Positions 1-7,340 are shown, numbered from the stretch's first letter. The stretch is 13,955 bases of DNA from Escherichia coli (GCF_003334765.1 NZ_QOWT01000055.1); one strand, 5' to 3'. Made by a program: numbers and translations. Notes: generated by a model from the sequence alone, not told the origin.

Positions 1-453
1 CACCGGGGACATCAGCAGGTGCTGTTTGTGGTGACGCAGGCCGACAAAACGGAGCCCTGCCATGAATGGGATATGGCAGGTATTCAGCCTTCTCCCGCAC
101 AGGAACAGAACATTCGTGAGAAAACAGATGCGGTATTCCGGCTGTTCCGGCCCGTACATCCGGTTGTGGCCGTATCGGCCCGCACCGGCTGGGAACTGGA
201 TACGCTGGTCAGTGCGCTCATGACAGCACTTCCCGACCATGCCGCCAGTCCCCTGATGACCCGCCTGCAGGACGAGCTGCGCACGGAGTCTGTCCGGTCT
301 CAGGCCCGTGAACAGTTTACCGGTGCGGTGGACCGGATATTTGACACGGCGGAGAGCGTCTGCATTGCCTCTGTTGCACGCACGGTTCTGCGCGCCGTCC
401 GTGACTCGGTGGTCTCTGTTGCCCGCGCGGTATGGAACTGGATTTTCTTCTGA
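1..453 (+). CDS. GTPase of the YeeP/YfjP/YkfA family (3' portion; 5' end upstream of window)
   Basis: Frame is open from base 1 (HRGHQQVLFVVTQADK...) to TGA at 451-453. Tail resembles from memory the C-terminal region of CP4-prophage GTP-binding proteins, and it sits directly upstream of a DUF932-type gene as yfjP does before yfjQ. Confidence 0.6.
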   Translation, partial: HRGHQQVLFVVTQADKTEPCHEWDMAGIQPSPAQEQNIREKTDAVFRLFRPVHPVVAVSARTGWELDTLVSALMTALPDHAASPLMTRLQDELRTESVRSQAREQFTGAVDRIFDTAESVCIASVARTVLRAVRDSVVSVARAVWNWIFF

Positions 454-540
454 ACCCGGTGGTGATGTACCAGGCTGTTGTTACAGATTTTTAACTCCAT
501 GAAAACACTATGCAAACGCAGCCATACCCGGGTTGTCCCC

Positions 541-569
541 TTGCGTTGTGTTTCTCAAGTTAATAGAAT
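541..569 (+). promoter_or_regulatory. Putative sigma70 promoter (-35 TTGCGT 541-546, 17-bp spacer, -10 TAGAAT 564-569)
   Basis: Hexamers and spacing read directly from the sequence; predicted transcript start around 576-578, about 95 nt upstream of the ATG at 671. Confidence 0.4.
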
Positions 570-572
570 ACA

Positions 573-613
573 TCGATCGTTACTATCATATCGATCGTTA
601 TAAACGATCGTTT
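573..613 (+). promoter_or_regulatory. Three GATC (Dam) sites inside a thrice-repeated CGATCGTT motif, at and just downstream of the predicted transcript start
   Basis: GATC at 575-578, 593-596 and 606-609, each within CGATCG; motif copies TCGATCGTTA (573-582), TCGATCGTTA (591-600), ACGATCGTTT (604-613). Confidence 0.55.
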
Positions 614-670
614 GTAGTAAATGACCTCCTCCGTGGTTGTCATGAAAATGCGTCTTAGGAAGGTTAAATA

Positions 671-3067
671 ATGCACGAAAAGAACATCGCCCTGCTTTGT
701 GATGAAGCCGACCGACTTTTGCAACTGAACATTAATCTGCTCCGGCAAATGGTTGAGGAGCCAGATGTGTTATCTGACAGTAAGAACGAAAACAGACTGC
801 TTTTTGATAAACAGAAAGCACTGAAAAGAATTGAGGAGCTGGAGGGCGAACAAATCAAAACCGCCCGCAGGGAGATGGTGCTGGCTGTTGTCGGCACGAT
901 GAAAGCAGGCAAATCAACCACCATCAATGCCATTGTGGGGCAGGAAATTCTGCCTAACCGTAACCGCCCCATGACCTCTGTACCGACGCTCATCCGCCAC
1001 GTTCCCGGAAAAACTGAGCCGGTTCTCCATCTGGAACATATTCAGCCTGTCCGCAATTTATTAATCACACTGCAGGAAAAACTCGCCACCCCGGCAGGAC
1101 AGCAGGTCGCACAGACCCTGCAGCAAACCGGGGATACCCGCGAACTGCTGGATATTCTGACGGATGATGGCTGGCTCAAAAATGAATACCACGGGGAGGA
1201 GGAAATCTTTACCGGACTGGCATCGTTAAACGATCTGGTTCGTCTTGCTGCGGCAATGGGGACTGAATTTCCTTTTGATGAATACGCAGAAGTGCAGAAA
1301 CTGCCGGTGATCGACGTGGAATTCAGCCATCTGGTGGGGATGGATGCATGCCAGGGAACACTCACACTGCTGGATACCCCCGGCCCTAATGAGGCCGGAC
1401 AACCGCAGATGGAAGTGATGATGCGGGATCAACTGCAGAAAGCCTCTGCGGTTCTGGCTGTGATGGATTACACCCAGATGAACTCAAAAGCGGATGAAGA
1501 CGTCCGTAAAGAGCTTAATGCCATTGCTGACGTATCAGCCGGCCGCCTGTTTGTACTGGTCAATAAATTTGATGAGAAAGACCGCAATGGCGATGGGGCA
1601 GATGCCGTACGCCAGAAAGTTCCGGCAATGCTGAACAGCGATGTGCTGCCCGCCTCCCGCGTTTATCCCGGATCCTCACGCCAGGCATACCTGGCTAACC
1701 GTGCGCTTCATGAGTTACGGAAAAACGGAACCCTTCCTGTTGATGAAGCCTGGGTCGATGATTTTATCAGAGGTGCCTTCGGTTGCATGAAAAAAGAATA
1801 CGTCTGTAAAGACAGTGAACTGGCAACTGAAGGGGCGACAGACCTGTGGGAAGGCTCACTTATCGATCAACTGATAACGGAAGTCATACAGAGCTCACAT
1901 TCCAGAGCTGCGGCACTGGCGGTTGACTCTGCCGCCGCAAAACTGATGCAGAATGCAGAAAATATCAGTGAATACCTGTTGTTACGCCATCAGGGGCTAC
2001 AGCAAAGCATTCAGTCACTGCAGTCGCATATCACCAGCCTGCTTGCGGATATCCGGGAAATCGCGGACTGTCAGGAGCAGATGACCACTGATGTCAGAAT
2101 GGCCATGGAGGAGATCGATACTAAAACCCGGGAATTACTGACGGGGGTCTGCACCTCACTGGAAGAGGAGCTGAATGACTATTTCAGAAGCGGTAAACGC
2201 AAAGAACAGCAAATGCTGGAGGAAGAAGACGCAGAACAACGAAGGTCTCAGTCCGGATTATGGGGGAAAATTTCTCAATGGTCCGGTATCAACAACCAGG
2301 GCCGGGAGGATTACAGGAAACGAGATTTTGCCCCGGACAGCCCCGAAATAAAATTCAGTGATCGCAGGGAAGCCCTTGAACTGATGACGCAAATCGAATC
2401 GACCGTGACCAGCCTGCACCGTGAGGCTGAAGCACAGTTCCGGCCTGAGCTGGAGAAAATCGTCAGCGGGATTGAAACAGGTTTTCGTGGCACGGCCCTG
2501 TACGCCACAGAAAACATTGCCGGTCGCATCAATGCCCGCCTGGAGGATGAGGGCTTTACCGTAAAAATCAGTTTTCCGGCAGTCAGCCAGTTACAGACCC
2601 GGCTCGCGGTAAAAATAAATCTGAGTGCGCTTATGGAGGAAAGAACGGAGACCGTCACCCGTCGCCGTCGGCAGAGTGGCGTATGGGGAACCGTTTGTCG
2701 ATGGTTTGGCACCAGTGACCTGGGCTGGGAAAACTATGACGAGGATGTGAGTCGCAGCGTGATCAATATCAACAAGGTCAGAGAGGAAGTTATGTCACTG
2801 ACCCGGGCATATTTCGGGGAGCTGCAGGCATCCATTGAGCAGGATATTAACCAGCCCGTCCGCCAGGAAATCGATGCCTTTTTCTGCGCATTCAGGGAGA
2901 AAGTTGAACAACTGCGTAACACGCTGATTCAGAGCTCTGAGGATCATAAACGCGATCAGCAGGCGCAGGAACGACTTACCGGGCGACTTCAGGCATTAAA
3001 TGAAAGGGTTCCTGAGCTCATTACTGACAGTAAGGCGCTGAGGGAAGAGCTGGAGACAATGCTGTGA
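671..3067 (+). CDS. Dynamin-like large GTPase, CrfC/YjdA-like paralog (798 aa)
   Basis: RBS AGGAAGG about 8 nt before ATG 671. P-loop GTMKAGKST encoded at 893-919, DTPG at 1373-1384, NKFD at 1562-1573, followed by a ~500-aa largely helical region. Collinear from memory with CrfC (…GTMKAGKSTTINAIVG…LPNRNRPMT…LTLLDTPGPNEAGQP…VLVNKFD…). Confidence 0.85.
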   Translation: MHEKNIALLCDEADRLLQLNINLLRQMVEEPDVLSDSKNENRLLFDKQKALKRIEELEGEQIKTARREMVLAVVGTMKAGKSTTINAIVGQEILPNRNRPMTSVPTLIRHVPGKTEPVLHLEHIQPVRNLLITLQEKLATPAGQQVAQTLQQTGDTRELLDILTDDGWLKNEYHGEEEIFTGLASLNDLVRLAAAMGTEFPFDEYAEVQKLPVIDVEFSHLVGMDACQGTLTLLDTPGPNEAGQPQMEVMMRDQLQKASAVLAVMDYTQMNSKADEDVRKELNAIADVSAGRLFVLVNKFDEKDRNGDGADAVRQKVPAMLNSDVLPASRVYPGSSRQAYLANRALHELRKNGTLPVDEAWVDDFIRGAFGCMKKEYVCKDSELATEGATDLWEGSLIDQLITEVIQSSHSRAAALAVDSAAAKLMQNAENISEYLLLRHQGLQQSIQSLQSHITSLLADIREIADCQEQMTTDVRMAMEEIDTKTRELLTGVCTSLEEELNDYFRSGKRKEQQMLEEEDAEQRRSQSGLWGKISQWSGINNQGREDYRKRDFAPDSPEIKFSDRREALELMTQIESTVTSLHREAEAQFRPELEKIVSGIETGFRGTALYATENIAGRINARLEDEGFTVKISFPAVSQLQTRLAVKINLSALMEERTETVTRRRRQSGVWGTVCRWFGTSDLGWENYDEDVSRSVININKVREEVMSLTRAYFGELQASIEQDINQPVRQEIDAFFCAFREKVEQLRNTLIQSSEDHKRDQQAQERLTGRLQALNERVPELITDSKALREELETML

Positions 3068-4467
3068 CTTCACCATTTATTCAACAAATTGCTGATAACC
3101 GGGTATGTCAGGTACTCACCTGTCTTCCTGAAAAATTTGTGGTTGATTTCGCAAACGGAATCGATGTTGCACAGGAGCATATCCGCACGGCCGGAGAGCG
3201 CACGTTCTTCCGGCGTTTAAAAGAGGGGCTGACCGGCGAAGGCGCTGCACGGCAGAATGCCATCAATGCGTCGCTTGCACAGGGCGTTGAGGCGTCCCTG
3301 CGCTGGCTGACGGAGATGACAACGTCACTTGCCACCACAAACTACGCGATTACCCAGGTAAACGACAGGGTCAGTTCACTGGTCAGTGATACAGCCAGGC
3401 TGGCGCATTATTCCGCAGATACGCGGGAGCAGTTACTCACCCTGGCCGATCAGGTTCACCATAAACTGAATCATCTTGAAGAAAAACTCCACCGTGTTGA
3501 CCAGGTTCAGCGGGCGCAGTTACATCTTGAGCAGATATTCTCATGGTGGAGCGCCGGGCGATATGCGTCATTTTCCCCTGCCGGACGTTGTTATGTGGCA
3601 CTTGAAGAGCTTCGCTGGGGCGCGTTTGGTGATGTGATACGTCAGGGCGAAACAGGCCAGGTTAACCAGCTACTGGATATTCTCAGACATAAAGCATTAA
3701 CGCAGATGGCACAGGAGAGTGGCGGTAGTGCAACCGTGCGTCTGAACACTCTGGACTGGCTTGGTGGTCAGGGCCGGGAGCAGGCAGATAACGAGTGGCA
3801 TGACGCGATTAACTGGCTGGGAGACTGGTGCAGTGAAGAGCAGCATCCGGTGACCCGTGTGCGCGACCCGGGCCGCCGGGGATACACAAAACACATGCTG
3901 CGTCTGCGGCGGGCCGGAGAGATAAACGGAGAACATGTCCCTGAAATTATTCTGCTCAACTCTCATGACGGTACCTCCAGCTACCAGATGCTGCCGGGTT
4001 ACTTCAGGTTCGTCTGCCAGAACGGGTGCGTCTGTGGCCAGTCTCTGGGGGAAGTGCGTGTTCCACACCGGGGAAATGTAGTGGAGAAAGTTATCGAAGG
4101 GGCTTACGAGGTGGTGGGCGTGTTTGACCGGATAGAGGAGAAGCGTGATGCCATGCAGTCGCTGGTCCTGCCGCCACCGGCACGCCAGGCGCTGGCACAG
4201 GCGGCACTGACTTACCGTTATGGTGACGAACATCAGCCCGTCACCACCGCCGACATTCTGACGCCGCGACGCCGGGAGGATTACGGTAAGGACCTGTGGA
4301 GCGCATATCAGACCATCCAGGAGAATATGCTGAAAGGCGGGATTTCCGGTCGCAGTGCAAAAGGAAAACGTATCCATACCCGGGCCATTCACAGCATTGA
4401 TACCGACATTAAGCTCAATCGCGCATTGTGGGTGATGGCAGAAACGATGCTGGAGAGCCTGCGCTGA
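3064..4467 (+). CDS. Partner protein, apparently chimeric: N-terminal ~260 aa of unplaced helical domain fused to a DUF932/UPF0380 (YfjQ/YafZ-like) C-terminal ~200 aa
   Basis: GTG start at 3064 overlaps the upstream TGA (GTGA, 3064-3067). C-terminal segment (…TRVRDPGRRGYTKHMLRLRRAGEI…EIILLNSHDGTSSYQMLPGYFRFVCQNG…KLNRALWVMAETMLESLR) matches my memory of YfjQ-family proteins minus their first ~70 residues. Confidence 0.7.
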   Translation: MTSPFIQQIADNRVCQVLTCLPEKFVVDFANGIDVAQEHIRTAGERTFFRRLKEGLTGEGAARQNAINASLAQGVEASLRWLTEMTTSLATTNYAITQVNDRVSSLVSDTARLAHYSADTREQLLTLADQVHHKLNHLEEKLHRVDQVQRAQLHLEQIFSWWSAGRYASFSPAGRCYVALEELRWGAFGDVIRQGETGQVNQLLDILRHKALTQMAQESGGSATVRLNTLDWLGGQGREQADNEWHDAINWLGDWCSEEQHPVTRVRDPGRRGYTKHMLRLRRAGEINGEHVPEIILLNSHDGTSSYQMLPGYFRFVCQNGCVCGQSLGEVRVPHRGNVVEKVIEGAYEVVGVFDRIEEKRDAMQSLVLPPPARQALAQAALTYRYGDEHQPVTTADILTPRRREDYGKDLWSAYQTIQENMLKGGISGRSAKGKRIHTRAIHSIDTDIKLNRALWVMAETMLESLR

Positions 4468-4548
4468 TGCCGTTTCCCTGAGTGAGGGAATCATTCAGCT
4501 TTCGTTCCTGAAAAACACACATTTATTTGTTATTTAAGGAGTTATCTC

Positions 4549-5028
4549 ATGAAAACCGTTTCTCAGAATACCCCCACAATTTATTCAGCTACAACACCAG
4601 AGAATAATCCGCCTCAGTTGGTTGCCAGCCTCGTCCCTGATGAACAGCGCATCAGCTTCTGGCCGCAGCATTTTGGCCTCATTCCACAGTGGGTGACCCT
4701 GGAGCCCCGTGTCTTCGGCTGGATGGACCGTCTGTGCGAAGACTACTGCGGTGGTATCTGGAATCTGTACACCCTGAACAACGGCGGGGCATTTATGGCA
4801 CCCGAACCGGATGACGATGATGGCGAAAACTGGGTACTGTTCAATGCCATGAACGGTAACCGCGCTGAAATGAGCCCGGAAGCCGCCGGCATTGCCGCCT
4901 GTCTGATGACGTACAGTCATCATGCCTGTCGTACGGAGTGTTATGCCATGACGGTCCATTATTACCGGCTGCGGGATTACGCCCTGCAGCATCCGGAATG
5001 CAGCGCCATTATGCGCATCATCGACTGA
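4549..5028 (+). CDS. Antirestriction protein, ArdB/KlcA family (YfjX/YafX-like), 159 aa
   Basis: RBS AAGGAG 7 nt before ATG. Acidic DDDDGE stretch and cysteine/histidine-rich C-terminus as I recall for this family; position before the RadC-like gene is as in CP4 islands. Confidence 0.75.
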   Translation: MKTVSQNTPTIYSATTPENNPPQLVASLVPDEQRISFWPQHFGLIPQWVTLEPRVFGWMDRLCEDYCGGIWNLYTLNNGGAFMAPEPDDDDGENWVLFNAMNGNRAEMSPEAAGIAACLMTYSHHACRTECYAMTVHYYRLRDYALQHPECSAIMRIID

Positions 5029-5043
5029 ATGGAGGCAGGGACA

Positions 5044-5520
5044 ATGCAACAACTTTCCTTTCTGCCCGGAGAGATGACGCCCGGCGAGCGCAGCCTCATT
5101 CAACGGGCCCTGAAAACCCTGGACCGCCATCTTCATGAACCCGGCGTGGCCTTCACCTCCACCCGTGCAGCACGGGAATGGCTGATTCTGAACATGGCGG
5201 GACTGGAGCGTGAAGAATTCCGGGTGCTGTATCTGAATAACCAGAATCAACTGATTGCCGGTGAAACCCTCTTTACCGGCACCATCAACCGCACGGAAGT
5301 CCATCCCCGGGAAGTGATTAAACGCGCCCTGTACCACAATGCCGCTGCCGTGGTACTGGCACACAATCACCCGTCCGGTGAAGTCACACCCAGTAAGGCA
5401 GACCGGCTTATCACCGAACGTCTGGTACAGGCACTGGGCCTGGTGGATATCCGGGTGCCGGACCATCTGATAGTCGGTGGCAACCAGGTTTTCTCCTTTG
5501 CCGAACATGGTCTGCTTTAA
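5044..5520 (+). CDS. yeeS: RadC-like JAB/MPN-domain protein (UPF0758; YeeS/YkfG/YfjY family)
   Basis: JAMM-type motif HNHPSG present. ATG at 5044 is preferred over the in-frame ATG at 5029 because GGAGG precedes it and it gives a 158-aa product typical of the family. Confidence 0.8.
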   Translation: MQQLSFLPGEMTPGERSLIQRALKTLDRHLHEPGVAFTSTRAAREWLILNMAGLEREEFRVLYLNNQNQLIAGETLFTGTINRTEVHPREVIKRALYHNAAAVVLAHNHPSGEVTPSKADRLITERLVQALGLVDIRVPDHLIVGGNQVFSFAEHGLL

Positions 5521-5582
5521 CCCGTCACAACCACATCACACCTGTTTTCACTTTTATCTTCTGTCTTCAGAGGTATCCCATT

Positions 5583-5804
5583 ATGAAAATTATCACCCGT
5601 GGTGAAGCCATGCGTATTCACCAACAACATCCGACATCCCGTCTTTTTCCGTTCTGTACCGGTAAATACCGCTGGCACGGCAGTGCTGAAGCGTATACCG
5701 GTCGTGAAGTGCAGGATATTCCCGGTGTGCTGGCCGTGTTTGCTGAACGCCGTAAGGACAGTTTTGGTCCGTATGTCCGGCTGATGAGCGTCACCCTGAA
5801 CTGA
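5583..5804 (+). CDS. yeeT: YeeT/YkfF-family small protein (DUF905), 73 aa
   Basis: Size, sequence (MKIITRGEAMRIHQQHPTSRLFPFCTGKYRWHG…) and position between the RadC-like and antitoxin genes. Confidence 0.75.
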   Translation: MKIITRGEAMRIHQQHPTSRLFPFCTGKYRWHGSAEAYTGREVQDIPGVLAVFAERRKDSFGPYVRLMSVTLN

Positions 5805-5877
5805 GTGGGAATTCTGATGAGCAGAATTATCGCCACTACCGGACCATTCTTAGCCGATTTTCTGTAAGGATTTTATC

Positions 5878-6246
5878 GTGTCAGACACACTCCCCGGGAC
5901 AACACTTCCCGACGACAATCACGACCGCCCCTGGTGGGGGCTGCCCTGCACCGTGACGCCCTGTTTCGGGGCACGTCTGGTGCAGGAGGGTAACCGGTTG
6001 CATTACCTTGCCGACCGCGCCGGTATCAGAGGCCTGTTCAGCGATGCAGATGCGTACCACCTGGACCAGGCCTTTCCGCTGCTGATGAAACAACTGGAAC
6101 TCGTGCTCACCAGCGGTGAACTGAATCCCCGCCATCAGCATACCGTCACGCTGTATGCAAAAGGGCTGACCTGCAAAGCCGATACCCTCAGCAGTTGTGG
6201 TTACGTTTATCTGGCTGTTTATCCGACGCCCGAAATGAAAAATTAA
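5878..6246 (+). CDS. cbeA: Type IV antitoxin CbeA (YeeU), 122 aa, GTG start
   Basis: Translation (MSDTLPGTTLPDDNHDRPWWGLPCTVTPCFGARLVQEGNRLHYLADRAGIRGLF…) is near-identical to YeeU as I recall it; AAGGA 7 nt before GTG 5878. Confidence 0.85.
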   Translation: MSDTLPGTTLPDDNHDRPWWGLPCTVTPCFGARLVQEGNRLHYLADRAGIRGLFSDADAYHLDQAFPLLMKQLELVLTSGELNPRHQHTVTLYAKGLTCKADTLSSCGYVYLAVYPTPEMKN

Positions 6247-6334
6247 CTCTCCAGAATAGCCTTCTGCTACGGCCTGGTGTTTTCACCACGCCACTTTTCC
6301 ATTTTTATATCTGCATATCAGGAAAATCTTCAGT

Positions 6335-6709
6335 ATGAAAACATTACCTGTATTACCCGGGCAGGCGACCAGTTCTCGCCCGTCTCCTGTTGAAATCTGG
6401 CAGATACTGCTGTCCCGACTGCTGGACCAGCACTATGGCCTCACACTGAATGACACACCTTTTGCCGATGAACGTGTGATTGAGCAGCATATTGAGGCAG
6501 GCATTTCACTGTGTGATGCGGTGAACTTTCTCGTGGAAAAATACGCGCTGGTGCGTACCGACCAGCCGGGATTCAGCGCCTGTACCCGCTCTCAGTTAAT
6601 AAACAGCATCGATATCCTCCGGGCTCGCAGGGCGACCGGCCTGATGACCCGCGACAATTACAGAACGGTAAATAACATTACCCTGGGTAAGTATCCGGAG
6701 GCGAAATGA
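6335..6709 (+). CDS. cbtA: Type IV toxin CbtA (YeeV), 124 aa
   Basis: Translation (MKTLPVLPGQATSSRPSPVEIWQILLSRLLDQHYGLTLNDTPFADERV…) matches the CbtA/YkfI/YpjF family; it lies directly downstream of the antitoxin. Confidence 0.85.
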   Translation: MKTLPVLPGQATSSRPSPVEIWQILLSRLLDQHYGLTLNDTPFADERVIEQHIEAGISLCDAVNFLVEKYALVRTDQPGFSACTRSQLINSIDILRARRATGLMTRDNYRTVNNITLGKYPEAK

Positions 6710-6900
6710 TGACACTGGAAGCCGACAGCGTTAACGTACAGGCGCTGGATATGGGGCACATTGTCGTTGACATTGATGGTGTTAATATCACTGAACTGAT
6801 TAATAAGGCCGCTGAAAAAGGTTATTCACTCCGCGTGGTGGATGACCGTGACTCTACCGAAACACCGGCAACTTATGCCAGCCCTCACCAGTTGCTGTAA
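6706..6900 (+). CDS. yeeW: YeeW-like small protein, 64 aa
   Basis: ATGA start/stop overlap with cbtA at 6706-6709; conserved position after the toxin in CP4-44-type islands. Confidence 0.65.
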   Translation: MMTLEADSVNVQALDMGHIVVDIDGVNITELINKAAEKGYSLRVVDDRDSTETPATYASPHQLL

Positions 6901-6912
6901 GACAATGCAGTG

Positions 6913-7026
6913 ATGCAGGGTATAGTGCCATTAACCACAGAAACAGCACTGTTGTCCTGTATTAAGCAGGCAAGAGAAGATGTCCTTACCCTGCGCCATC
7001 TGCAGCTTCTGCACCAGAACCGGTGA
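6913..7026 (+). CDS. Possible small ORF (37 aa; MQGIVPLTTETALLSCIKQAREDVLTLRHLQLLHQNR)
   Basis: Open frame between yeeW and the terminator at 7056. No convincing Shine-Dalgarno. Low confidence. Confidence 0.2.
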   Translation: MQGIVPLTTETALLSCIKQAREDVLTLRHLQLLHQNR

Positions 7027-7055
7027 ATCTCACTCAACAGGCTTCATTTCCCCTG

Positions 7056-7090
7056 ACGCCAGCCTGAATACAGCTGGCGTTTTCATTTAT
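7056..7090 (+). terminator. Rho-independent terminator ending the island operon
   Basis: Perfect 8-bp stem ACGCCAGC (7056-7063) / GCTGGCGT (7073-7080) with a 9-nt loop, followed by TTTCATTTAT. Confidence 0.6.
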
Positions 7091-7184
7091 AAACAGAAAG
7101 GAAAACCGATAATAATGGAATGGACGCCCCGACCATGAAGCAACGGTAGGATATTACTGATAAACCTTCCAGTGGAGGTGCGTT

Positions 7185-7265
7185 ATGGCCGTTTTAACGA
7201 TTAGCATTGACCTGACAAAAAATGAATTCCAAATCCACGGTCTGGGTAGGAACAGAAAAATCTAA
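7185..7265 (+). pseudogene. Remnant resembling the N-terminus of an IS110-family transposase (26 codons then stop)
   Basis: MAVLTISIDLTKNEFQIHGLGRNRKI* resembles the IDL(A/T)K..F.(V/I)HG N-terminal signature of IS110-family transposases; preceded by GGAGG. Confidence 0.35.
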
Positions 7266-7340
7266 GCTCAGAAAACGGATTAAAGTAAGCGTCAACGGAG
7301 CACCGTATTGACGCTTATTTATTGGTGAGAACTACGTTCC

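Follow-up and report, generated by a model that had tools for sequence, protein, structure and literature searches.

What does a dynamin-like GTPase gene do on a genomic island of Escherichia coli, and is the open reading frame (ORF) that overlaps its 3' end a genuine partner? The question is raised by a stretch of 13,955 nucleotides from E. coli (GCF_003334765.1, NZ_QOWT01000055.1), called the window here; all coordinates are those of this whole stretch, and the region of interest spans positions 671–4467. A sequence-only reading had described the region as a two-gene operon in which a dynamin-like GTPase of 798 amino acids is translationally coupled to a partner of 467 amino acids, and had likened the pair to the LeoA/LeoBC systems. 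The dynamin gene is real and intact. The 467-codon ORF is an in-frame deletion fusion of an RdcB-like gene and a DUF932 gene and not a natural protein, and the unit from which it derives is a three-gene operon (dynamin, YjcZ/RdcB-like, patatin), not a pair. On balance we favour a reading in which the window holds a recently broken copy of this operon, and in which the intact trio would join a GTP switch to a phospholipase, would serve in defence by abortive infection and would be phase-variable.

A reading frame made by deletion

The second ORF (3064–4467, plus strand) begins with a GTG that overlaps the TGA stop codon of the dynamin gene by 4 nt (ATGCTGTGAC), and a GGAG is found about 10 nt 5' of this start. 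An identical GTG start is annotated in relatives by the Prokaryotic Genome Annotation Pipeline (PGAP). Because of the overlap and the GGAG, translational coupling of the two reading frames is plausible, and this part of the earlier description stands; the partner itself is a chimera. Pfam YjcZ (PF13990) matches residues 26–267 of the 467 amino acid protein (model positions 1–243 of 272), and Pfam DUF932 (PF06067) matches residues 263–456 (model positions 35–227 of 227). By BLASTP, residues 1–263 correspond to residues 1–263 of a 301 amino acid "diguanylate cyclase regulator RdcB family protein" in relatives, and residues 264–467 correspond to residues 69–272 of a DUF932 protein, with 95% identity. 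Neither part is full length. The C-terminal MPRxCSAxRL...E motif of YjcZ is gone, as is the whole 38-residue C-terminus (264–301) of the RdcB-like protein with its nearly invariant P279, R286 and E294, and the first 68 residues of the 272 amino acid DUF932 protein are gone as well. The RdcB-like part is 27% identical to K-12 RdcB, and a GTPase domain is absent from the 467 amino acid protein.

At the DNA level, window positions 1–3853 and those from 3852 onward have their counterparts in relatives at two places, 1.7–2.9 kb apart. Strain BE2-5 is the closest relative on both sides of the junction (99.8% and 100% identity). Here the gene order is RdcB, patatin, a 227 amino acid hypothetical protein, a 136 amino acid hypothetical protein and DUF932, and measured against this strain the deletion is 2,854 bp long; the ancestral order can also be read from strain 720632. 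A single deletion has joined the RdcB-like gene, after its codon 263, in frame to the DUF932 gene at codon 69, removing the C-terminus of RdcB, the phospholipase gene and the two small genes. Not one of 5,426 complete E. coli genomes has the junction, and among about 15 billion proteins the exact chimera occurs on one 18.7-kb draft contig only. The exact dynamin protein sequence occurs on at least 1000 contigs. For these reasons the fusion is recent and private. The idea of a genuine 467 amino acid partner has to be given up, since the protein consists of two truncated domains of separate genes and is known from a single contig.

In relatives the operon encodes a dynamin of 794–798 amino acids, an RdcB-like protein of 301 amino acids and a patatin-like phospholipase of 356 amino acids, with 4-nt overlaps between the genes. 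The patatin-like protein has the motifs GGGAVG, GASIG (Ser42) and DGG (Asp223). This third gene is missing from the window, and the operon that had been described as a pair is thus a trio with one gene deleted. At least 80% of the 4.4-kb dynamin–RdcB–patatin unit is present in 2,443 of the 5,426 complete genomes (45%), with up to five copies of the trio per genome. Carriers include Nissle 1917, O157:H7 and the enteropathogenic E. coli (EPEC) strain E2348/69; K-12 has none. No predicted transmembrane segment or obvious export signal was found in any of the three proteins. The operon has already been described in a 2026 paper, which noted about 30% identity to RdcAB, proposed a putative defence system, placed the operon on pathogenicity islands such as PAI-CFT073-aspV and reported its strong up-regulation in Kapi1 lysogens (PMC12922286). 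The trio genes are also listed on an O118 island (PMC13182975).

Because the phospholipase gene and the RdcB-like C-terminus are gone, the copy in the window, with its effector lost and its adaptor truncated, is probably dead, and the GTPase could be the only component that it still produces. Other strains have lost other parts: in BE2-5 the dynamin gene and the N-terminus of RdcB are lost through a 5' deletion, strain 720632 has three copies of the insertion sequence IS600 and an inversion in the operon, and in CEA601S most of the patatin gene is missing. Each of the three complete genomes nearest to the window at this locus has its own, independent lesion in the operon, and inactivation has recurred in this lineage; a cryptic island decaying neutrally and a costly module being selected against would both explain the pattern.

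The dynamin-like GTPase and its family

The 798 amino acid protein has the motifs of the dynamin superfamily: a G1 P-loop (GTMKAGKST, residues 75–83), the G2 threonine, a G3 DxxG motif (DTPG, 235–238) and a G4 N/TKxD motif (NKFD, 298–301). Pfam Dynamin_N matches residues 71–299 (E 1.6e-17), and K81 and T102, the equivalents of K82 and T103 in RdcA, are invariant across 60 homologues. An AlphaFold (AF2) model made from 60 homologues, with a predicted local distance difference test score (pLDDT) of 84.6 and a predicted template modelling score (pTM) of 0.75, has a G domain followed by long helical neck/trunk segments. The top Foldseek matches of this model in the Protein Data Bank (PDB) are the bacterial dynamin-like protein BDLP (2j69, E 7e-15), SynDLP, IniA, mitofusins and the Campylobacter dynamin-like proteins (DLPs) DLP1/2, and LeoA (4aur) is found at rank 48 (E 1.4e-6). 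The complete GTPase domain and the long helical stalk of the earlier description are thus confirmed. Its suggestion of a diverged paralogue of CrfC (YjdA) also agrees with the data: the island dynamin is collinear with K-12 RdcA (the same protein as YjdA and CrfC) and 33% identical to it over about 740 amino acids, and its best NCBIfam match, the CrfC model NF007368, scores 556.2 bits, below the cut-off of 1146. The closest protein relatives among the matches listed all have at least 93% identity.

The dynamin has no hydrophobic stretch, its 19-residue Kyte–Doolittle mean peaking at 1.16. It does have two Trp-rich motifs, SGLWGKISQWSG (528–539) and SGVWGTVCRWFG (669–680), both with an Arg-rich stretch before them. 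Most of the first falls in a low-confidence loop, with pLDDT below 50 from residue 532 of the model. The second is inside a beta-rich insert (656–699) between long stalk helices and is partly kept in K-12 RdcA. Both loops are candidates only for membrane- or partner-binding tips.

When 1.84 billion representative proteins were searched with the dynamin, 447 relatives were found at E ≤1e-30. The order Dynamin_N, YjcZ, Patatin, with overlapping or abutting genes, is found in all six readable diverged metagenomic loci (30–41% identity). One of the six (L012 / L013 3629–4791) has two extra genes between YjcZ and patatin, for a 96 amino acid protein and a 291 amino acid FRG-domain protein. Another relative (P0166, L006 389–3982) is a 1197 amino acid protein with tandem Dynamin_N domains; it is followed by a YjcZ gene, and the contig stops short of any third gene. 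A scan of one genome per species, in which the flanks were profile-searched, gave 80 loci: 27 trios, 48 pairs and 5 that were not assessable. The trios come mainly from beta- and gammaproteobacteria, namely E. albertii, Pantoea, Erwinia, Pseudomonas, Gallionella, Aquaspirillum, Paraburkholderia, Thiodictyon, Budvicia, Thiorhodospira, Allochromatium, HdN1, Paenacidovorax, Serratia oryzae, Pontibacterium, Marinospirillum and Macromonas, as well as several metagenome-assembled genomes, one of them from Pontiellaceae. The 48 pairs without patatin are all from Enterobacteriaceae and are the core rdcAB locus, and in 27 of the 27 assessable loci outside this core, patatin is the conserved third gene. 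In a tree of the dynamins, the 49 pair-only proteins (these 48 and K-12 RdcA) form one clade, sister to the trio proteins of Budvicia and Serratia oryzae and, under midpoint rooting, nested among trio lineages. This suggests that core rdcAB arose from the trio through loss of the phospholipase gene.

The trio differs from the known systems with which it can be compared. RdcA/RdcB of K-12 shares the two-gene core in the same order, with overlapping genes, with the G1 lysine and G2 threonine kept and with a partner in Pfam YjcZ. However, the island dynamin is a paralogue on a mobile island and not at yjdM–proP, its family has a patatin gene in cis whereas core rdcAB is without one, and the putative island promoter is of the agn43 type whereas that of core rdcAB belongs to the flagellar regulon. 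The BDLP-type DLPs (Nostoc BDLP, SynDLP, IniA, DynA) provide the best folds (2j69, 7zw6, 6j72) and have a G domain with neck/trunk in common with the island dynamin. Unlike them, with 12–16% identity, the island dynamin has no predicted transmembrane segment and no clear paddle segment, and it has the beta-rich insert and an obligate YjcZ partner. Patatin-like phospholipase effectors kill through membrane damage. The gene deleted here has the GGGxxG, GxSxG and DGG motifs that are found in patatin defence effectors such as CapV of the cyclic-oligonucleotide-based antiphage signalling system (CBASS), but the phospholipase effector models of PADLOC match it with only 20 bits over the N-terminal 65 residues. 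In contrast to CBASS, the trio has no cyclase or nucleotide-signalling gene, and the activator proposed here is a GTPase complex. By analogy, the family would be a GTPase switch of the RdcA/RdcB kind with a phospholipase effector.

Eleos ("Dynamins") consists of paired dynamin-like proteins with homology to LeoABC (10.1101/2022.05.11.491447). The likeness consists of a bacterial dynamin-like GTPase on islands, beside defence genes, and of the structural match to LeoA. Eleos, however, has two or three dynamin-like proteins and neither YjcZ nor patatin, and here there is a single dynamin. Of the Leo models in PADLOC, LeoBC matches this dynamin with 19.8 bits over residues 29–89, that is, the P-loop only, and LeoA does not match. 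The trio is not an Eleos/Leo system, and the analogy with LeoA/LeoBC does not hold.

Putative upstream switch, neighbourhoods and island

The gap between the yeeP-like gene and the dynamin ATG is 217 nt long and has three GATC sites (575, 593 and 606) within TTAATAGAATACATCGATCGTTACTATCATATCGATCGTTATAAACGATCG. The sequence TAATAGAATA is found 14 nt 5' of the first GATC, and likewise at K-12 flu and O157 cah. The GATC sites are spaced 18/13 nt here and 19/13 nt at flu and cah. Positions 572–608, just 3' of the putative -10 element, match the OxyR consensus at 16 of 20 positions; this is the best match in the window on either strand (the next best has 14/20), and the K-12 agn43 region scores 14/20 on the same consensus. 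All three GATC sites are kept in CEA601S (L001), a second homologous stretch (L002), Nissle, strain 720632 and E. albertii despite surrounding substitutions, and they are absent in other genera. The promoter is assigned by homology: its -35 element TTGCGT is weak (3/6 positions), and a generic promoter scan did not call the site. In this way the region resembles the agn43/cah switch, with TAATAGAATA and three GATC sites within an OxyR-consensus-like sequence. It differs in that it would drive a predicted cytoplasmic GTPase operon rather than an autotransporter, and in a 5' untranslated region (UTR) of about 60 nt as opposed to about 190–220 nt in agn43/cah. A perfect inverted repeat with an 8-bp stem, CGATCGTTATAAACGATCG (592–610), is made from the second and third GATC sites; it came up as terminator-like in the scan and is more likely a part of the OxyR/Dam site than a terminator.

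The Dam–OxyR switch of agn43 (flu) was reportedly described by Haagmans and van der Woude in 2000. That agn43 is phase-variable through Dam methylation of GATC sites overlapping an OxyR site is established (PMC3764049), and judging from the shared sequence, the dynamin operon is probably phase-variable in Escherichia as well. In the literature searched, no paper linking OxyR, GATC and dynamin was found, and phase variation of the operon is not mentioned in the paper that describes it (PMC12922286); the presence of an Ag43-type switch on this operon has apparently not been noted before. If the switch works, the up-regulation in Kapi1 lysogens (PMC12922286) could be read as a clonal ON/OFF difference, a pitfall that is known from agn43 (PMC3764049).

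In 1,982 of the 5,426 genomes the switch directly adjoins the dynamin gene, and in 635 the trio follows cah, which has its own switch. In O157:H7 (L018 3041–10354) the trio is found 110 nt 3' of this Ag43-family gene, and because the gap is without a GATC cluster, trios of this type may be co-transcribed or co-vary with the phase-variable adhesin. The possibility that the switch–dynamin arrangement is simply a cah deletion from the O157 type was rejected, as the sequences between switch and ATG and between cah and ATG are unrelated.

Outside Escherichia, the nearest neighbours of the trio, viewed in 16 genera, are mostly unannotated, and many have matches to defence models. JukA and JukB are jumbo-phage killer defence genes. 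Both are found directly 3' of the trio in Erwinia sp. S63 (L021 10409–12168; 195.7 and 372.8 bits), and JukA is found directly 3' of it in a Pseudomonas genome (L024 10479–11213). NCBIfam weakly labels JukA as "MsyB". Four unrelated loci (L007 977–1888, L025 5041–5970, L040 4234–5268 and L057 5317–5733), from Gallionella, Paenacidovorax, Marinospirillum and one metagenomic contig, have a gene for a WYL-domain regulator 5' of the trio and in the same orientation. It is immediately adjacent in three of the four, with one small ORF between in L040, and the metagenomic locus adjoins a MazE/PIN pair. This suggests that outside Escherichia the trio may be under BrxR/CapW-type control, which is typical of defence systems. 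Other genes near trio loci include the candidates PDC-S17, PDC-S24 (Fic) and PDC-M27A, BrxF, a DrmD-like SNF2 helicase and, in one metagenomic locus and E. coli C6, type I restriction-modification genes. Of 30 nearest neighbours of trio loci, 11 had a PADLOC match (E ≤1e-5), and of 10 neighbours of pair-only loci one had a weak match, a difference that is not statistically strong. By guilt by association, these neighbourhoods are suggestive of a defence role of the intact trio.

In the window the operon is found on an island of the CP4-44 type (Table 1). Window positions 7–456 are 96.4% identical to K-12 yeeP, and positions 5068–11570 are 98.8% identical to K-12 CP4-44 and its flank from yeeS through dacD. 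To the left of the operon is the yeeP-like GTPase gene, and to the right are RadC, YeeT, CbeA, CbtA and YeeW, followed by tmaR, yeeA, sbmC and dacD. Positions 1–3853 align to 8502–12354 of the CEA601S locus, where the gene annotated as "GTPase family protein" ends at 8954. In K-12 the slot between yeeP and yeeS is occupied by isrC–flu–yeeR. The alignments to K-12 bear out both the CP4-type flanking genes and the location, where CP4-44 carries flu, that had been read from the sequence. They also place the locus at CP4-44 and not at yjdM–proP, and the operon is therefore not an allele of crfC–yjcZ in its usual place; nor is it a fixed part of all CP4-type islands, being absent from K-12 CP4-44 and present in about 45% of complete E. 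coli genomes. Since K-12 has none and holds isrC–flu–yeeR in this slot, the operon is variable cargo that takes the place of flu on a CP4-44-type island, and neither a fixed island component nor a core rdcAB allele. Outside Escherichia the trio has no linkage to CP4 backbone genes, save for some of them near the Serratia oryzae copy. The trio is for this reason a self-contained module, and "component of CP4 islands" was rejected as its defining context.

Table 1. Features of the window in order of position
Feature	Position	Strand	Basis or remark
Island GTPase gene (yeeP-like), 3' part	1–453	+	5' side lost at window start
Promoter candidate: TTGCGT (541–546), 17-nt spacer, TAGAAT (564–569)	541–569	+	Homology to agn43/cah promoter region
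Putative agn43-type switch: three GATC inside OxyR-consensus-like site 572–608	572–609		Spacing and consensus match
Shine-Dalgarno-like AGGAAGG	657–663	+	7 nt 5' of ATG, read from sequence
Dynamin-like GTPase gene, intact, island paralogue of RdcA/CrfC	671–3067	+	ORF, profiles, model
RdcB/YjcZ-like gene, 5' part, codons 1–263 of 301	3064–3852	+	BLASTP, Pfam
Deletion junction V263/T264, 2-nt GA microhomology	3852–3853		DNA alignment to relatives
DUF932 gene, 3' part, codons 69–272, in frame with RdcB-like part	3853–4467	+	BLASTP, Pfam
Terminator-like hairpin 3' of DUF932 stop	4478–4498	+	Consensus scan only
Antirestriction gene	4549–5028	+	Annotation of homologous stretches (L001, L002, K-12)
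RadC-like gene	5029–5520	+	Homologous annotation; RadC match in NCBIfam
YeeT gene	5583–5804	+	Annotation in L001, L002, K-12
CbeA gene	5878–6246	+	Annotation in L001, L002, K-12
CbtA gene	6335–6709	+	Annotation in L001, L002, K-12
YeeW gene	6706–6900	+	Annotation in L001, L002, K-12

Some other parts of the window deserve mention. The counterpart of an ORF at 7341–7697 is yoeF, with which CP4-44 ends on the right; the C-terminus of this ORF weakly matches the EutP/PduV family (42 bits), and the ORF is probably a gene remnant. Positions 11571–13955 form a low-GC stretch (29–33% over most of it) in place of the K-12 dacD–sbcB intergenic region. This stretch matches 73 of the 5,426 genomes at ≥80% coverage, and its counterpart in BE2-5 is the end of a prophage remnant, with a tail fibre assembly gene and an integrase adjoining sbcB. 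The ORF for 359 amino acids within it (12550–13629) has no match in Pfam or NCBIfam. An Rfam scan of the whole window at the gathering threshold gave zero matches, including no IsrC-like RNA 5' of the operon. Antisense ORFs in the region of interest (e.g. 3697–4494, minus strand, 265 amino acids) have no counterpart in the annotation of relatives and are regarded as unsupported; no library search was made with them.

What the intact trio might do

The activity of RdcA gives an idea of how the intact operon might work. RdcA dimerises and binds both RdcB and the MASE1 domain of the diguanylate cyclase DgcE. T103D abolishes the activation of DgcE and K82A does not, from which it follows that nucleotide-free RdcA is the activating form and GTP an inhibitor (PMC6510439). 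In the intact operon, a complex of dynamin and YjcZ might likewise be a GTP-controlled switch that binds and activates an effector, which would be the patatin phospholipase encoded in cis instead of DgcE. The activated phospholipase would hydrolyse membrane phospholipid and so damage the membrane, and in Escherichia the operon would be expressed from a phase-variable Dam/OxyR promoter of the agn43 type. Anti-phage defence by abortive infection is the likeliest use of such a trio, although we hold it tentatively, with somewhat less than even confidence.

Several points weigh against this reading. In the literature on dynamin and patatin with phage or defence, no experimental study was found. 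PADLOC-DB v2.0.0 has no full-length significant match for the trio proteins, the weak and partial matches (LeoBC, ZorA, NsnC and a phospholipase effector) being of about 20 bits or less, and searches of the window proteins in NCBIfam and PADLOC gave no defence-family membership. The interaction between dynamin/YjcZ and patatin is deduced only from operon structure and the paralogue. The neighbourhood sample is small (16 loci), CP4-type islands hold many non-defence genes, and the position of the trio 3' of cah in 635 genomes fits a surface or membrane role equally well. The dynamin tree, made by neighbour joining and rooted at the midpoint, is crude and has no support values, and the deletion itself is known from one draft contig.

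The last point could mean that the junction at 3852/3853 is an artefact of draft assembly and that the operon is intact in the strain, all the more as CP4-type islands are repeated within genomes, with a median of three matching places per genome. However, homology at the join is limited to 2 nt, too little for an assembler to bridge, a single BE2-5 locus is collinear with both flanks, and the same operon has independent deletions and insertion sequences in the three closest complete genomes; an artefact is therefore very improbable. A functional Leo/Eleos-like pair with a genuine 467 amino acid partner has in its favour that both ORFs are open, that they overlap by 4 nt and that the fusion is in frame. 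It is refuted by the alignments of the chimeric ORF, which give two truncated domains, on one contig and without a GTPase domain. Moreover, the Leo models reach at most 19.8 bits on the P-loop, and Eleos needs two dynamin-like proteins (10.1101/2022.05.11.491447), so that such a pair is hardly credible at all.

The remaining alternatives concern the use of the intact trio. It might be a phase-variable membrane or surface module tied to Ag43/Cah, acting in vesiculation, envelope remodelling or colonisation, with the dynamin as membrane remodeller, the phospholipase as a source or sink of lipid, and the copy in the window as a decayed version. In essentially all E. coli copies the operon is indeed found behind an agn43-type switch or directly behind cah, pathogenicity islands that carry it include PAI-CFT073-aspV (PMC12922286), the dynamin shares its fold with the membrane-remodelling proteins BDLP, mitofusin and IniA, and the two Trp-rich loops could be membrane paddles. 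But the three proteins are without predicted transmembrane segments or obvious export signals, outside Escherichia neither adhesins nor CP4 backbone genes accompany the trio, whose neighbours there include defence genes and WYL regulators, and the paralogue RdcA is a soluble signalling switch and not a membrane remodeller (PMC6510439). We consider a role of this kind, the main rival to defence, unlikely, but worth keeping in mind. It is less likely again, and on the whole improbable, that the island proteins are additional cyclic di-GMP regulators of the RdcA/RdcB type, acting on DgcE or another MASE1 protein, in which case the surviving dynamin might still act alone or with core RdcB. This would agree with the NCBI name of the partner, with collinearity to RdcA and RdcB at 33% and 27% identity, and with the nesting of the core pair among trio sequences in the tree. 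However, the family name is a homology label only, the score for the CrfC/RdcA equivalog is less than half of its cut-off, and the third gene in all assessable non-core loci is a phospholipase and not a cyclase.

Defence by abortive infection, the use that we prefer for the intact trio, could be taken one step further. The trio may represent a new type of abortive infection, in which a GTP-sensing switch licenses a phospholipase and, in Escherichia, epigenetic (Dam/OxyR) phase variation limits the cost to part of the population, and the housekeeping biofilm regulators RdcA/RdcB may have been domesticated from it, losing the phospholipase and being rewired to DgcE; we regard this as a speculative extension that is rather unlikely to hold in full. 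The copy in the window is of little value beyond showing how such islands decay. The module to which it belonged is another matter: close to half of the complete E. coli genomes contain it, its genes have stayed together across Proteobacteria, defence genes are among its recurrent neighbours, and the trio family would give an evolutionary origin for RdcA/RdcB.

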